Source of the DNA: a virus
Strand: one strand, 5' to 3'
DNA: 64,000 nt
IMG/VR virus record: IMGVR_UViG_3300027749_000042
In this document: positions 2,983-64,000 of the stretch, piece by piece
How positions within the stretch are numbered: position 1 is the stretch's first letter
How the letters are laid out: each line of letters starts with the position of its first letter
The notes under the pieces: generated by a model
Seen by the model: the letters and a program-made list of their open reading frames with translations, nothing else
Told to the model about the DNA's origin: nothing
The model's database searches: none
Position numbers and translations under genes: made by a program

Positions 2983-3638
2983 TGAAGCTAATCTGCGAAC
3001 TAAACGAAAGCGATATTCAAATCGTAACCGAGGCTACCGAGTCTGGTGAAAAGAACTTCTTCATTGAAGGCATTTTCATGCAAGCTGGTATTCAAAACAA
3101 AAACGGTCGAGTTTATCCCGTTGATATTGTCTCACGCGAAGTCGATAGGTACCGTGGTGCATATATCGACACCAACCGTGCATATGGTGAACTAGGCCAT
3201 CCTGCAGGTCCAAACATTAACCTAGAGCGCGTATCACACATGATTAAGGATCTTCACATGGAAGGTTCTAATGCTATTGGTCGTGCAAAGATCATGGACA
3301 CACCATACGGTAAGATCGTCAAGGATCTTATGAAGGAAGGTGCCAACCTTGGTGTCTCTTCACGCGGTATGGGAACACTCACAAAAAGAAATGGTATCAT
3401 GGAAGTAGGTAGCGATTTCTACCTTGCTACCGCTGCTGATATCGTTGCTGATCCTTCTGCACCACAAGCGTTTGTTCGTGGTATCATGGAAGGCAAAGAA
3501 TGGATTTGGGAAAACGGCGTTCTACACGAGCGTGAAATTTCTGAGATTCGCGACGACATTGAAGACGGTTATGCTACCACTCGCAACAAAGAAGAGGTAA
3601 TGATTGAGGCTTTTAAAAAGTTTCTATCAAAACTCTGA
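2982..3638 (+). CDS. gp21: Prohead core protease gp21
   Basis: IEGIFMQA..NKNGRVYP, AYGELGHP, LGVSSRGMG, ADIVADPSAP motifs. Confidence 0.97.
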   Translation: MKLICELNESDIQIVTEATESGEKNFFIEGIFMQAGIQNKNGRVYPVDIVSREVDRYRGAYIDTNRAYGELGHPAGPNINLERVSHMIKDLHMEGSNAIGRAKIMDTPYGKIVKDLMKEGANLGVSSRGMGTLTKRNGIMEVGSDFYLATAADIVADPSAPQAFVRGIMEGKEWIWENGVLHEREISEIRDDIEDGYATTRNKEEVMIEAFKKFLSKL

Positions 3639-3641
3639 TTT

Positions 3642-3649
3642 TATAAATA
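3642..3649 (+). promoter_or_regulatory. T4-type late promoter
   Basis: TATAAATA upstream of gp22. Confidence 0.8.
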
Positions 3650-3691
3650 ACATAAGAAACATTTTTTGATAACACCTGAGGAGAAATGAAT

Positions 3692-4783
3692 ATGTCAGTT
3701 CAGGACACAAATGTCGATAAGCTCGACGTACAAGAAGCAAAGAGAGCGAGCTTTGGCGTTAATGCTGAGGTTCCTGATCCAACTGGAGTAAGTGCATCAC
3801 CTCCTGGTGGTTCACAGAATTCTGGTGATAGAACAAACCCAATGCAGGGTTCTAGCGTTAAGCCATACACAAAGGTTGGTATGATTAACTCTATGATTCA
3901 AGCACTCTCTGGAATGAAGAAGGCCGAAGTATCAATAGCTTATGATTCATTCAAGGGCGATAAGACAAACCCAATGCAGGGTTCATCTGTTAATCCAAAG
4001 GGCCGTATGGCTGAGTCCAAGATTGCCCGTCTAACAAAGGAAGACCTCGACGTGTCCGATGATATCAAGGCCATTTTTGAAGGCACCGACGTTTCTGCCG
4101 ATTTCATTGCTCGCGCAACTGAAGTATTTGAAGCAGCTGTTCTAACTAAAGTTAATGAGCAGATTTCTGTTCTTGACGAAAGATTTGAATTGGCTCTATC
4201 CGAAGAAACAGAAAGCCTAGGCGAGTCGCTAGTTGAGCGCGTAGACACATATCTTGACTATGTTGTTGAGAGCTGGATGGAAAACAATGCCGTTGCTGTA
4301 GAGCGCGGGCTAAAGGCTGAGATCGTAGAAGGTTTCATGAAGGGTCTTAAGGATCTATTCACAGAACACTACATCGACATTCCAGATGAAGCCGTTGATG
4401 TAACCGAAGAACTAGCTGACCAGGTTGAAGTTCTTGAGGCTGTTATCAACGAAGAAATCGAAAAGAATATTGAGCTAACAGCTCAGATTAAAGAATTTGA
4501 GCGCGTAATTGCGTTCAATGAAGTTTCAGAAGGTCTTGCAGATACGCAGTATGCAAAGCTACAATCGCTTTCTGAAGCAGTTGACTTCGATGACATTGAG
4601 TCATATCAGAAGAAGATTGCTACCCTTCGTGAGAGTTACTTCCCAACAAGGGGTTCGGCCGGCCCCCTAAACGAAAGCGTAACACTCGATGAGGAACCAG
4701 TGGGCGAAGAAATCGCTGAAAAGCAGGTTCCGGGCGAAATGGCTGCTTACATGAACGCGATCACTCGCGGTATCAGAAAGTAA
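3692..4783 (+). CDS. gp22: Prohead core scaffold protein gp22
   Basis: Acidic coiled coil; VDTYLDYVVESWMENN, LFTEHYIDIP, LRESYF motifs; between gp21 and gp23. Confidence 0.93.
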   Translation: MSVQDTNVDKLDVQEAKRASFGVNAEVPDPTGVSASPPGGSQNSGDRTNPMQGSSVKPYTKVGMINSMIQALSGMKKAEVSIAYDSFKGDKTNPMQGSSVNPKGRMAESKIARLTKEDLDVSDDIKAIFEGTDVSADFIARATEVFEAAVLTKVNEQISVLDERFELALSEETESLGESLVERVDTYLDYVVESWMENNAVAVERGLKAEIVEGFMKGLKDLFTEHYIDIPDEAVDVTEELADQVEVLEAVINEEIEKNIELTAQIKEFERVIAFNEVSEGLADTQYAKLQSLSEAVDFDDIESYQKKIATLRESYFPTRGSAGPLNESVTLDEEPVGEEIAEKQVPGEMAAYMNAITRGIRK

Positions 4784-9221: not shown

Positions 9222-9812
9222 ATGACTGAAGAATTAGCGCCAATCACTTATGCTAAACCGCCTAAGAAGAAAAAGCATTATGTGAACAACGTGGATTTGT
9301 TTGATGCGCTGGTAATCCATAGAGAAAAGGTGCAAGCTGCTAAGGACGCTGGCAAACAACTGCCTCGCATTCCACATTATATCGGTGAAGCGATTATGAA
9401 GATTGCTACCCATCTTGCATACAAGCCAAACTTCTCAAACTACACGTTCCGCGAAGAGATGATTTCGGATGGCATTGAGAATTGCCTGCTGTATCTGAAT
9501 AACTTTGATCCTGCGAAGTCTAAAAATCCATTCGCATACTTCACACAGATTATTTACTTTGCATTTCTTCGCCGCATCCAACGAGAGAAGCGTCATTTAT
9601 ATACCAAGTATGCAGCCATTGAACAAGCAAACATTATGGGTGCTACATCTGAGAATCAAGGCGGTGATATCAGGTCTTATGATACGGACATCAAGTATGG
9701 TGAGTGGTCACAAGAACAGATGGAACGCTTTATGAAAGACTTTGAAGATTCCAGCATTGCTAAAAAAACTAAGGCCGCTGAAACTAAAGAAGCGAAGTTG
9801 AATCCACAATGA
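9222..9812 (+). CDS. gp55: Late-transcription sigma factor gp55
   Basis: HYVNN, KPNFSNYTFREEMISDGIENC, NPFAYFTQIIYFAFLRRIQREK. Confidence 0.97.
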   Translation: MTEELAPITYAKPPKKKKHYVNNVDLFDALVIHREKVQAAKDAGKQLPRIPHYIGEAIMKIATHLAYKPNFSNYTFREEMISDGIENCLLYLNNFDPAKSKNPFAYFTQIIYFAFLRRIQREKRHLYTKYAAIEQANIMGATSENQGGDIRSYDTDIKYGEWSQEQMERFMKDFEDSSIAKKTKAAETKEAKLNPQ

Positions 9813-10867
9813 AGATTGCACTTATCACTGATACGCACTGGGGTGTGCGTAATGACAATTCCGCATTTCTCGACAACAACAAGAAATTCTTAGATGACAT
9901 TTTCTTTCCGTATCTCGATACTCATGGCATTGACACTGTTATCCATCTCGGTGATTTGGTTGACCGTCGTAAATATCTTAATATCAATACAGCTAAGCGA
10001 CTACGAGAAGATTTTATATCGCCTCTCCATAGAAGAGAAATCCGCCCCCACCTCATCATTGGAAACCACGATACCTATTTCAAAAATACGAACTCTGTAA
10101 ATTCAATCCGAGAAATCTACGGAAATGATTTCTGTATCTATGAGTCCGCTAGAGAGGTAAAAGTTGATGGCGTTCCAATTCTTTTCATTCCATGGATCTG
10201 CGATGATAACCGCGATGAAACGCTACAGCTTATCAGCACAACAAACGCTCAAATCTGCATGGGCCACCTCGAGCTTGCAGGTTTTGAAATGTATCGAGGT
10301 AGTCCAGTCAGCCATGGAGATGATCGTGGTTTGTTTGGTAGGTTCGACATGGTACTTAGCGGTCATTATCATCACAGGTCTTCTGCTGGGAACATTCACT
10401 ACCTTGGTAGCCATGCTGAGTTTACTTGGAGCGACTACGATGACCCCAAAGGATTCCATATCCTTGATACGGAAACTCGTGAACTGGCGTTTATAGAAAA
10501 CCCATTCAAGATGTTTCGTAAGATGTGGTATAACGATAAAGACGTTACCACCGAAGCTTTGCTTGACAGAGACTTTTCAAAATACGCGGGCGCGTATGTG
10601 AAGCTTATTGTTCAGGGTAAAGATAATCCGTTTGCGTTTGATTTGTTTACCACTAAGCTTTATGAAGCCAATCCAATTGAGGTGGTAATCGTTGAAGACC
10701 ATCGCAACATGGACACCATTGACGAGAATGACCTATTGAACGAGGCCGAAGATACCCTTACGATTTTGTCTAAGTATATTGGCACACTAGAAACAAGCGT
10801 TGACACAAAAGAGCTTGACAATCTAATGCATTCTCTATACAATGAAGCAATGAAAATGGAAGTTTGA
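9809..10867 (+). CDS. gp47: Recombination nuclease subunit gp47 (Mre11/SbcD-like)
   Basis: DTHWG, LGDLVD, GNHD, SGHYH metallophosphoesterase motifs. Confidence 0.96.
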   Translation: MKIALITDTHWGVRNDNSAFLDNNKKFLDDIFFPYLDTHGIDTVIHLGDLVDRRKYLNINTAKRLREDFISPLHRREIRPHLIIGNHDTYFKNTNSVNSIREIYGNDFCIYESAREVKVDGVPILFIPWICDDNRDETLQLISTTNAQICMGHLELAGFEMYRGSPVSHGDDRGLFGRFDMVLSGHYHHRSSAGNIHYLGSHAEFTWSDYDDPKGFHILDTETRELAFIENPFKMFRKMWYNDKDVTTEALLDRDFSKYAGAYVKLIVQGKDNPFAFDLFTTKLYEANPIEVVIVEDHRNMDTIDENDLLNEAEDTLTILSKYIGTLETSVDTKELDNLMHSLYNEAMKMEV

Positions 10868-62415: not shown

Positions 62416-62784
62416 GTGACAAAGATCGTTTATAATGGTTGCTTCGGTGGCTTTGGTTTGTCCGATGCCTGCATTCGTAGGTACCTCAAGATAAAGGGTG
62501 TCCCTTTTACTGAGGAAGATTCGGAATATCCTAGCTTTCGCAATGTCCGATTTCGTATCGGTACTAGCGTAATGAATGAGGGTGACTTTTTCAATGATTG
62601 GAATATTGAGCGGACAGATCCTGTTCTCGCTCAAGCCGTAGAAGAGCTTGGTAAAGCTGCGTCTGGTTATTGTGCTGACCTGTGCATCCGTGAGTTAGCA
62701 CCTGGTACGCGGTACATTCTGCGAGAGTATGACGGTTCCGAATGGATCGAAACCGAAGATGAAATGGAATGGAGTGTAGCATGA
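62416..62784 (+). CDS. Conserved phage hypothetical protein
   Basis: KIVYNGCFGGFGLS...RTDPVL.QAVEELG...EYDGSE. Confidence 0.7.
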   Translation: MTKIVYNGCFGGFGLSDACIRRYLKIKGVPFTEEDSEYPSFRNVRFRIGTSVMNEGDFFNDWNIERTDPVLAQAVEELGKAASGYCADLCIRELAPGTRYILREYDGSEWIETEDEMEWSVA

Positions 62785-63035
62785 TCCGCATTGCAGCCGT
62801 CTCAGCATTAGCCCTCGCGCTCGCGGGCTGCAATGCGACCGTGTATGGTCCTCGCCCTACCATGGATGTTTACGTTCCGCCTCCGCGGTATATCGCGCAG
62901 GAGCCAGTGTATATACCACAGCCTGTCGCTAGGCCGTATTATGCACCACTCCGACGCCCGCGGTGTGCTACTGTGTGGGATCGCACTCCTCATGGGTACG
63001 TAGAGCGTCAGGTTTGCGGGAACCATATCCCGTAA
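62781..63035 (+). CDS. Pro-rich lipoprotein
   Basis: Signal peptide with lipobox LAGC. Confidence 0.65.
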   Translation: MIRIAAVSALALALAGCNATVYGPRPTMDVYVPPPRYIAQEPVYIPQPVARPYYAPLRRPRCATVWDRTPHGYVERQVCGNHIP

Positions 63036-63042
63036 AGATTTC

Positions 63043-63119
63043 GGACTCTTAGCTCAGTTGGTTAGAGCAGCGGTCTTTTAAACCGTTGGTGCTGGGTTCG
63101 AGTCCCAGAGAGTCCACCA
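63043..63119 (+). tRNA. tRNA-Lys(TTT)
   Basis: GGACTCT/AGAGTCC acceptor, GCGGT-CT-TTT-AA-ACCGT arm, CCA. Confidence 0.93.
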
Positions 63120-63124
63120 TATAA

Positions 63125-63202
63125 CCTCCGTTGGTGTAGCGGTCCAACATACCCGCCTTTCAAGCGCGGAGATCATCGGTTCAAATCCGATACGGAGGAC
63201 CA
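63125..63202 (+). tRNA. tRNA-Glu(TTC)
   Basis: CCTCCGT/ACGGAGG acceptor, CT-TTC-AA loop (one anticodon-stem mismatch), GGTTCAAATCC, CCA. Confidence 0.85.
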
Positions 63203-63213
63203 AAAAAGAGTGG

Positions 63214-63273
63214 TTGACAAAAGAGTGCCAACCTGCTACTATATAAGAATAGAGAATACGCTGTTTGACATTG
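63214..63273 (+). promoter_or_regulatory. Sigma70 promoter with downstream boxA-like element
   Basis: TTGACA-17-TACTAT (63214-63242); GCTGTTTGACATTG at 63260-63273. Confidence 0.6.
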
Positions 63274-63285
63274 CTGGTAAAGAAA

Positions 63286-63646
63286 AAGAAACGCCGGGGA
63301 TTCCTGCTTTTAGAGTAGGGATTCTTACCCCATCGTGGGTGTAACGGTTGTTTCTTCTAAAAGAGCTATGCGATGCTGCCACATCGTTAGTGGCAGCTAC
63401 AAGATATCTCGTATGGGGTATGCAAGATAGCTCTTTTAGAAGAAACAACTGATTAGGTATGGTGTTATGGAAAATCCCAGTGTTCCTGGGCAGCGCACAG
63501 TCCCTGGAGCCCTCTGTCCTGCAGGCACGGCATAAACTGAGTTGTAACTGAAAAGTGGGGTTGCTCCCACGCATAAGGTTACAGATTAAAGCGAACGGTA
63601 TGACAGTCTATCCATATCCATAACATAACACCATGCCTAATCAGTT
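63286..63646 (+). ncRNA. Unidentified structured ncRNA block with two 23-bp closing stems
   Basis: Inverted repeats 63347-63369/63427-63449 (perfect) and 63447-63469/63624-63646 (one G-U) enclosing internal hairpins; no plausible + strand ORF. Confidence 0.6.
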
Positions 63647-63648
63647 TT

Positions 63649-63725
63649 CGGAGATTGGCTCAGTCTGGTAGAGCATCGCGTTTGGGACGCGAGGGTCGCA
63701 GGTTCGAATCCTGCATCTCCGACCA
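63649..63725 (+). tRNA. tRNA-Pro(TGG)
   Basis: CGGAGAT/ATCTCCG acceptor, TCGCG-TT-TGG-GA-CGCGA arm, CCA. Confidence 0.95.
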
Positions 63726-63730
63726 ATTTA

Positions 63731-63806
63731 GGACCATTAGCTCAGCTGGTAGAGCAGGAGACTCTTAATCTCTTTGTCGCAGGTTCGAGCCCTGCATGGT
63801 TCACCA
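63731..63806 (+). tRNA. tRNA-Lys(CTT)
   Basis: GGACCAT/ATGGTTC acceptor, GGAGA-CT-CTT-AA-TCTCT arm, CCA. Confidence 0.93.
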
Positions 63807-63811
63807 AATGA

Positions 63812-63886
63812 TGGGGCATAGCTCAGTGGTAGAGCAAACGCTTGATAAGCGTTAGGTCGCTGGTTCGGATCCAGCTGTCCCAACCA
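63812..63886 (+). tRNA. tRNA-Ile(GAT)
   Basis: TGGGGCA/TGTCCCA acceptor, AACGC-TT-GAT-AA-GCGTT arm, CCA. Confidence 0.92.
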
Positions 63887-63932
63887 AATGCATATATAAA
63901 CTATAATAGCATTCGTTGTTATTATAGTTTGA

Positions 63933-64000
63933 TTCTCGATAGCTCAGTTGGTAGAGCGTCTGACTGTTAATCAGAATGTCCCTGGTTCGAGCCCAGGTCG
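63933..64000 (+). tRNA. tRNA-Asn(GTT), 3' end truncated by window
   Basis: TAGCTCAGTTGGTAGAGC D arm, TCTGA-CT-GTT-AA-TCAGA arm, GGTTCGAGCCC. Confidence 0.9.

Follow-up and report, generated by a model that had tools for sequence, protein, structure and literature searches.

What is the role of a gene-free stretch of 446 nt (63203–63648) set between a UCA tRNA (63125–63202) and tRNA-Pro in the DNA of a virus? The window, i.e., the whole 64,000-nt stretch of DNA analyzed here, carries seven tRNA genes on the plus strand, which is also the strand of this block. The original prediction described a structured non-coding block inside the tRNA operon, with its own promoter, a boxA-like sequence and three chained modules, from which one or more novel RNAs could be excised. 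The answer reached below is that the locus is real and conserved and consists of several RNA parts, that its RNAs form new families of a known kind, and that its proposed mechanism involves Nus loading, excision by RNase III and dimerisation.

The locus, its relatives and the database searches

Among the T4-type replication genes of the window are those of UvsW and a gp43-type polymerase, and the closest cultured phages by polymerase are T4-like cyanophages (~50% identity). On these grounds, the source can be regarded as an uncultured T4-like phage. The sequencing runs holding the element are freshwater and lake metagenomes.

The UCA tRNA (78 nt, labelled SeC by ARAGORN) is kept in L001–L004, and the arrays that have it additionally hold a CUA tRNA (labelled Pyl). 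These two are likely opal and amber suppressors of a phage that otherwise uses the standard code. Upstream, an 88-aa ORF (62769–63035) with a lipoprotein-type signal (..LALAGC) stops 8 nt before tRNA-Lys; the preceding 122-aa ORF (62416–62784) is kept in seven IMG/VR contigs, always adjoining the tRNA array. As candidate coding sequences within the block, a 111-aa minus-strand ORF (63239–63574), in which L003 has a 4-nt deletion, and a 44-aa plus-strand ORF were rejected in view of the relatives that lack module 1 or carry other cassettes.

Relatives were gathered from one neighboring protein and four conserved DNA patterns, giving 65 related loci (51 distinct, 72–99% identity) from IMG/VR and JGI metagenomes. 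The block heads the tRNA array, between the promoter/box and the first tRNA, in 45 of the 51 distinct loci. Typically, the end of an ORF with an intrinsic terminator, or a promoter, is followed by the box, the modules and the tRNAs, the first of which (Lys-UUU, Pro, Ile or Ala) begins 2–4 nt past the last stem. The window is atypical only by two extra tRNAs upstream of the block. The placement inside a tRNA operon therefore holds for the window but not for most relatives, where the block is the head of the array. The covariation envisaged over related phages was found, and ~50 distinct loci of lake metagenomes show the block to be made of separate plus-strand RNA parts arranged in a chain.

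Rfam searched at gathering scores over the whole window (cmscan) returned tRNAs only. At relaxed thresholds (E ≤ 10 for 63000–64000, E ≤ 0.5 for nine relatives), tRNAs and chance-level hairpin matches were obtained, and the covariance models of GOLLD, ROOL and OLE gave no match in cmscan at these same thresholds. No Rfam model of tmRNA, RNase P RNA, 6S, SRP, YrlA or known self-cleaving ribozymes matched, and ARAGORN found no tmRNA in the window. The failure to recognize tmRNA, RNase P or SRP signatures in the block was thus confirmed, and so was the claim of novelty, since at least two undescribed RNAs have no Rfam match even at E ≤ 10. Among GenBank phages, blastn of the 446 nt gave no match and megablast of 6 kb gave tRNA matches only; the nearest virus record (G001) is a fragment without the block region. 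In 185,000 species genomes searched with the exact pattern, all 32 matches were attributable to chance according to the nhmmer profile.

Both 23-bp stems of the original prediction were recovered by a repeat search. The module 2 arms (63347–63369/63427–63449) are 23 nt long, 100% complementary and separated by 57 nt; the module 3 arms (63447–63469/63624–63646) are also 23 nt long, with one non-Watson–Crick position and 154 nt between them. No such arms are expected in shuffled sequence, and a scan of the 64 kb gave no close-range inverted repeat longer than that of module 2. A repeated mobile element was rejected, because neither arm has a second copy within the 64-kb window. On the plus strand, the 446-nt block folds with −162.7 kcal/mol (z = −6.8). 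The features of the block are collected in Table 1 together with the rrn leader boxes used for comparison.

Table 1. Features of the block in the window, and boxes of bacterial rrn leaders
Feature	Position	Strand	Description
Sigma-70-type promoter	63214–63242	+	TTGACA-17-TACTAT, TG before −10
BoxA-like box	63259–63273	+	CGCTGTTTGACATTG; once in window
H1 (module 1)	63288–63354	+	helix 63288–63296/63345–63354; hairpins 63300–63322, 63329–63339
Module 2	63347–63449	+	perfect 23-bp closing stem (platform) and 57-nt type-4 cassette
Module 3	63447–63646	+	stem 63447–63469/63624–63646; 154-nt conserved core 63470–63623
Module 3, P2	63476–63480/63486–63490	+	
Module 3, P3	63509–63511/63529–63531	+	
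Self-complementary loop	63518–63525	+	CCTGCAGG; inside P3 hairpin of module 3
Module 3, P4	63543–63549/63577–63583	+	inner hairpin 63555–63570
Module 3, P5	63597–63602/63613–63618	+	
tRNA-Pro (UGG)	63649–63725	+	ARAGORN, Rfam; starts 2 nt after module 3 stem
rrn leader box, Methylobacterium			CGTTCTTTGACAAG
rrn leader box, Stenotrophomonas			TGATCTTTGAAAG
rrn leader box, Oxalobacter			CGATCTTTAAAAAG
rrn leader box, Arenicellales			TGCTCTTTTAAAAT
rrn leader box, Acidimicrobiaceae			CGCTCCTTGACATCGG

The promoter, the boxA-like sequence and H1

The block has its own promoter and then a boxA-like sequence, as had been proposed, the box lying 17 nt past −10. In relatives, promoters of the form TTGAC(A/T)-17-TATACT, TATGAT or TATAAT occupy the same place, 15–25 nt upstream of the box, which can also follow an ORF stop or a terminator. 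Each leader has one copy of the box, which in ~45 distinct loci invariably opens the untranslated stretch; L020 has one more, located past the stop of a small ORF within the array. With the box at the start of each untranslated stretch, it could mark the places where Rho could load. Its alternative interpretation as a −35 element was rejected, since TTGACA is not kept (TTGAAA in L049, L054, L089 and L040).

The L020 locus (3300–4116) has both boxes in one array. The first of its two leaders has another cassette type and runs directly into two tRNAs; a promoter and a ~70-aa basic ORF come next, and the second box is found ~20 nt past the stop of this ORF.

The consensus of the box family is G-Y-T-G-T-T-T-G-A-(C/A)-A, with an invariant core. 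For gammaproteobacteria, the boxA consensus is GYTCTTTAANA (PMC5725501). The phage box (GYTGTTTGAMA) agrees with it in 9 of 11 positions. The mismatches are G for C at position 4, which is a critical one, and G at position 8, which is normal in the rrn leaders of Methylobacterium and Stenotrophomonas. C is found at position 4 in all six rrn leaders compared, and also in E. coli, whereas the phage box has G; simultaneous mutation of C4 and T6 abolished boxA function in E. coli (PMC5725501). Closely similar boxes occur in the rrn leaders of Methylobacterium, Stenotrophomonas, Oxalobacter and Acidimicrobiaceae. The phage box appears to fall inside the natural variation of boxA save for G at position 4, and can be termed boxA-like, with a putative function suggested by its sequence and context.

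The exact phage box was also searched in 401 Actinomycetota genomes, where none of the 12 loci inspected was near a 16S gene. The rrn leaders of Acidimicrobiaceae MAGs (L185, L186) read CGCTCCTTGACATCGGAATAGGAAC, and the phage leaders L014, L015 and L027 read CGCTGTTTGACATTGTTGGAATAGGAAAC. This likeness reaches past the boxA core and may be either a clue to the host or chance.

In 20 loci, H1, the first module, is simply a hairpin of 8–9 bp whose loop is GAAA (GAAACAATC-GAAA-GGTTGTTTC). In 21 loci, two hairpins are inserted in this loop as in the window, so the loop is not essential. In the window, these inner hairpins are formed by 63300–63308/63314–63322 (9 bp) and 63329–63332/63336–63339, and many compensatory variants of the 9-bp hairpin are observed. 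The module 1 pairing and the two inner hairpins were thus described correctly for the window, and they are kept in relatives.

The 3′ strand of H1 is at the same time the 5′ strand of the module 2 stem, and the 5′ strand of H1 repeats the module 2 3′ strand. The H1 5′, shared and module 2 3′ strands read GAGACAAC, GTTGTCTC and GAGACAAC in L040, and GAAACATC, GATGTTTC and GAAACATC in L014, L041 and L058. Since the three strands change together, it is shown at the level of sequence comparison that both pairings are under selection although they are mutually exclusive. The anticipated competition of modules 1 and 2 for one strand is borne out by this three-way covariation. The stability of module 2 greatly exceeds that of H1 (−53.5 vs. 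−31.5 kcal/mol), and H1 would accordingly be read as a transient co-transcriptional holder of the module 2 5′ strand, with a presumed order of folding.

Module 2, module 3 and their occurrence in RNA libraries

The basal stem of module 2 (GTTGTTTCTTC/GAAGAAACAAC) is kept in all loci, with its basal 11 bp of the same sequence everywhere. In relatives, the stem totals 20–24 bp, often with one internal loop, and the base of the stalk switches between GTTG/CAAC, ATCG/CGAT, GATG/CATC and GTTGTC/GAGACAAC. The interior is represented by at least 15 unrelated cassette types, plus another one in L020. The cassette of the window forms a three-way junction with two hairpins, 63375–63382/63390–63397 (8 bp) and 63404–63410/63415–63421 (7 bp). 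In the second hairpin of this type-4 cassette, two independent U-to-C changes convert U.G into C-G (L008, L016). Some other cassettes have T-loop-like hairpins. Against the Rfam tRNA model, whose gathering score is 29, the L039 cassette (9792–9853) reaches 26.2 bits, and it is not called by ARAGORN; it folds into a tRNA-like cloverleaf, in which acceptor (5-bp stem), D and T arms are recognizable and the anticodon arm is stunted. In L045, the platform is empty and consists of the stem and a short loop, taking up the ~50 nt that precede module 3 (begins near 858). A fixed stem with swapped, empty or tRNA-like interiors suggests that module 2 is a display stem for swappable small RNAs.

An additional long perfect hairpin in L006 and L091 bears the motif TATAAGCCTAACG..ACGCATAAG, which elsewhere is a module 2 cassette. 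L015, L018 and L022, which have no module 3, carry a platform with cassette type 4 and another with type 5 in tandem.

For module 3, an alignment of 41 distinct sequences (A3) was used. In its seven helices, 99.1% of cells are paired, compared with 33–47% when the partners are slid. Compensatory change is observed in 24 of 48 pairs, and none of 500 shuffles reaches any of the observed measures. In the closing stem, 15 of 21 pairs have changed on both sides. Covariation supports the predicted hairpins CCCAG/CTGGG and TGTAAC../..GTTACA with GTGGG/CCCAC. The third one (GCAG..ACAG/CTGT.CTGC) was not upheld: CTGC is part of a palindromic loop whose own positions covary with one another, and no variation is seen in ACAG/CTGT. 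All 41 sequences have the same joining strands, namely GGAAAAT, AGCGCACAGTC, ACTGAGTTG, TAAAGCGAACG and CATAACA.

In four loci (L038, L053, L068 and L104), neither box nor H1 nor module 2 accompanies module 3, which directly adjoins tRNA-Val and tRNA-Ala and has a closing stem wholly different in sequence yet complementary. Since it stands alone between two tRNAs in these loci, module 3 is an autonomous gene and not a piece of a leader.

The highest mutual information in the alignment is that of columns 78:81 (U:A in 26 sequences, A:U in 14, G:C in 1). Only the invariant GC lies between them, and columns 77:82 switch between C:G and U:A. Two bases with only two others between them cannot pair within one chain. 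The loop is palindromic in 100% of the 41 sequences; its variants CCUGCAGG (63518–63525 of the window), CCAGCUGG, CUAGCUAG and CGGCCG, with UGCA, AGCU or GGCC in the center, are found on different backgrounds. The self-duplex energy is −14.3 kcal/mol for the loop of the window and ranges from −10 to −14. A second self-complementary loop (GUCAUGAC/GUCGCGAC) is present in some relatives and absent from the window. Symmetric kissing loops of OLE and GOLLD were supported by switches of the same type (GGCC/GAUC/AGCU) (Kretsch et al. 2025, PMC12286853). Because the palindrome is kept in the pattern used for these kissing loops, module 3 RNA probably pairs with its own copies as a homodimer, as judged from covariation and the four palindrome variants.

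The reshuffling of palindrome and hairpin types among backgrounds could also be a trace of mobility. Cassettes, and perhaps module 3, would then be selfish or neutral mobile elements, spread among co-infecting phages by recombination in the stem flanks, similarly to the small homing elements of T4-like tRNA regions, and perfect stems would reflect recent transfer and not function. The type-4 cassette is indeed near-identical in 14 or more loci with differing flanks, and the T4 tRNA cluster houses the homing endonuclease gene segB. However, neither an endonuclease nor a transposase adjoins the block, there is a single copy per locus (none second in the 64-kb window), and compensatory and G.U-mediated changes specific to the plus strand point to selection on RNA. 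Such an origin is considered quite improbable.

Logan contigs of four lake metatranscriptome studies (X15–X18) were placed on 62800–64000. Module 3 is covered in all four studies, over a span of 63456–63630. In X18, an exact 158-nt contig (63473–63630, depth 15.7) is accompanied by a variant one, the contigs of X16 and X17 on module 3 are shorter, and the X15 contig, which belongs to a relative, spans module 2 into module 3. Module 2 is represented in the RNA libraries by one contig of depth 2. Over the upstream ORFs, depth is 0 in three runs out of four. Uncovered bins in general carry no weight as proof of absence. DNA carry-over does not explain the presence of the element in RNA libraries. 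Contig ends scatter over 63456–63473 and 63602–63630, so that they reveal no cut site, and assembled contigs cannot give RNA ends. The flanking helices (23 bp twice in the window, 20–24 bp in relatives) have the length of an RNase III-type stalk.

The choice of strand is determined by G.U pairs; the minus strand of the block folds almost equally well (z = −6.4). The odd position of the module 3 stem is U.G on the plus strand and A/C on the minus strand, and further G.U pairs on the plus strand are 19:191 (GU, n = 33), 68:88 (UG, n = 23) and 108:137 (UG, n = 20). Since these would be A/C mismatches on the minus strand, the RNA is that of the plus strand, and the orientation of the element is always that of the tRNAs. 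Taken with the 23-bp repeats, the fold and the covariation, these pairs substantiate the predicted structured non-coding RNA of the plus strand.

The good folding of the minus strand could be expected of an element acting at the DNA level, such as protein-binding sites, cruciforms, or a replication or recombination site. The perfect 23-bp arms and the 6–8 bp palindromes of restriction-site type (CTGCAG, CAGCTG, CGGCCG) agree with it, and perfect stems with cassette swaps would also fit a DNA-level recombination element. Nevertheless, G.U pairs on the plus strand only, variable sites that compensate rather than keep particular bases, and the occurrence in RNA libraries where flanking ORFs are absent are those of an RNA, and five nested helices with multi-branch cores would be senseless for DNA binding. 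A function of this kind is thus very hard to credit.

An RNA of the plus strand could still act purely in cis, as a leader whose stems serve transcription and processing of the tRNA array, the excised pieces being by-products. Antitermination of the HK022 put type, folding insulation between tRNAs, or nuclease entry sites could be the modes of its action. The position of the block between promoter/box and first tRNA in 45 of 51 distinct loci is as expected for a leader, the stem alone is kept in the empty platform of L045, and the H1/module 2 strand exchange resembles a co-transcriptional device. A leader alone hardly accounts, however, for module 3 between two tRNAs without box, H1 and module 2, for unpaired joining strands invariant in 41 sequences, for a self-complementary loop maintained by covariation, or for RNA contigs concentrated on module 3, and T-loop or tRNA-like cassettes are hard to explain as spacers. 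A purely cis-acting role is therefore rated unlikely.

Proposed mechanism and comparison with known systems

The block is rather probably the head of a phage tRNA transcription unit, organized like an rRNA operon and holding two stand-alone RNA genes. According to this scheme, the transcript would begin at the sigma-70-type promoter. The boxA-like sequence would most likely load host NusB/NusE, and the polymerase could then resist Rho across the untranslated array. H1 would form first and hold the 5′ strand of module 2 until it is displaced when the module 2 3′ strand emerges. By analogy with rRNA, the ~22-bp helices of modules 2 and 3 could serve as processing stalks for cleavage by host RNase III and further trimming, and RNase P cleavage at the 5′ end of tRNA-Pro would set the 3′ limit of the module 3 precursor. 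Module 2 would present a strain-variable small RNA, in this phage the 57-nt two-hairpin cassette. The product of module 3 would be a conserved RNA of ~155 nt, made of five helices joined by invariant strands; most likely, this RNA pairs with a second copy through the palindromic loop and functions in trans in the infected cell, as RNA or RNP.

A further-reaching version of this scheme is offered only tentatively. Module 3 may represent a new class of small self-associating phage RNAs, akin to the GOLLD, ROOL and OLE assemblies in kind though not in sequence, whose pairing specificity is given by the swappable palindrome. Module 2 may be a stem for cargo display and processing, with the cargo including tRNA mimics, e.g., decoys for host enzymes or for tRNA-acting defence nucleases.

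Module 3 is a small test object (~155 nt) with a covariation-backed fold and a testable prediction of self-pairing. Module 2 is a natural cassette system, in which at least 15 small RNAs on one stem hint at strain-specific functions. The virus appears to copy the design of rRNA operons, using an anti-Rho signal and processing stalks for a long untranslated array. If the box works, the range of accepted boxA sequences would be widened.

Bacterial YrlA has a long stem formed by its ends and topped by a tRNA-like module, as does the L039 cassette. In contrast, the cassette of the window has no tRNA-like fold, and the Rfam YrlA model matches true tRNAs only, below threshold.

Lambda nut and HK022 put are also phage RNA signals located just past a promoter and providing resistance to termination, which is proposed here. 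In nut, a GNRA-type hairpin comes after boxA, and in the phage block this place is taken by H1, whose loop is GAAA in 20 loci. The systems differ in that two hairpins replace the H1 loop in the window and in 21 loci, and an N-like protein is not known for the phage block. HK022 put has no likeness to it.

In their biology, the nearest counterparts are the T4 species 1 and 2 RNAs (rnaC, rnaD), likewise non-tRNA RNA genes on the tRNA strand of a T4-type tRNA cluster. They are stable RNAs of 120–140 nt, and in vitro cleavage of species 1 by RNase III has been reported. A tRNA-like T arm is found in species 1 and likewise in some module 2 cassettes of relatives. However, the folds of the T4 RNAs are unlike those of the block, their genes are located at the 3′ end of the cluster, and they have no 22-bp stalks, boxA-like box or cassette platform. 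A search of T4 68000–76000 with the module 3 nhmmer profile gave nothing, and blastn gave matches only at E > 0.4. In the fold of the T4 species 1 RNA (L036, T4 70908–71046), the T arm (CCGGGTTCGAATCCCGG) is canonical and one stem is acceptor-like.

GOLLD and ROOL are RNAs of phages and prophages that often adjoin tRNA islands, and by analogy module 3 would be the same kind of object as these tRNA-island RNAs. GOLLD, ROOL and OLE belong to the 'ornate' RNAs examined by cryo-EM (PMC12286853). Covariation that preserves a palindrome is common to OLE, GOLLD and module 3. The differences are in size, 500–800 nt for GOLLD, ROOL and OLE vs. 155–200 nt for module 3, and in the oligomers, which are suggested here by covariation. 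To our knowledge, none of the non-tRNA RNAs of phage tRNA clusters (T4 species 1 and 2, GOLLD, ROOL) has a known function.

The whole block is laid out like an rrn operon. The phage block differs from it in enclosing RNAs of 57–155 nt instead of rRNAs, in having G at position 4 of the box where C is conserved, and in that boxB and boxC are not recognized. The elements come in the same order, namely promoter, boxA or boxA-like box, a helper that pairs with the first stalk's 5′ strand, stalk-enclosed RNAs and tRNAs, and the rrn-like layout of the original prediction is in this respect supported. The core of the phage box (TTTGACA) is identical in the rrn leader of Methylobacterium, and the interplay of H1 with module 2 is like that of the leader with 16S in rrn operons.
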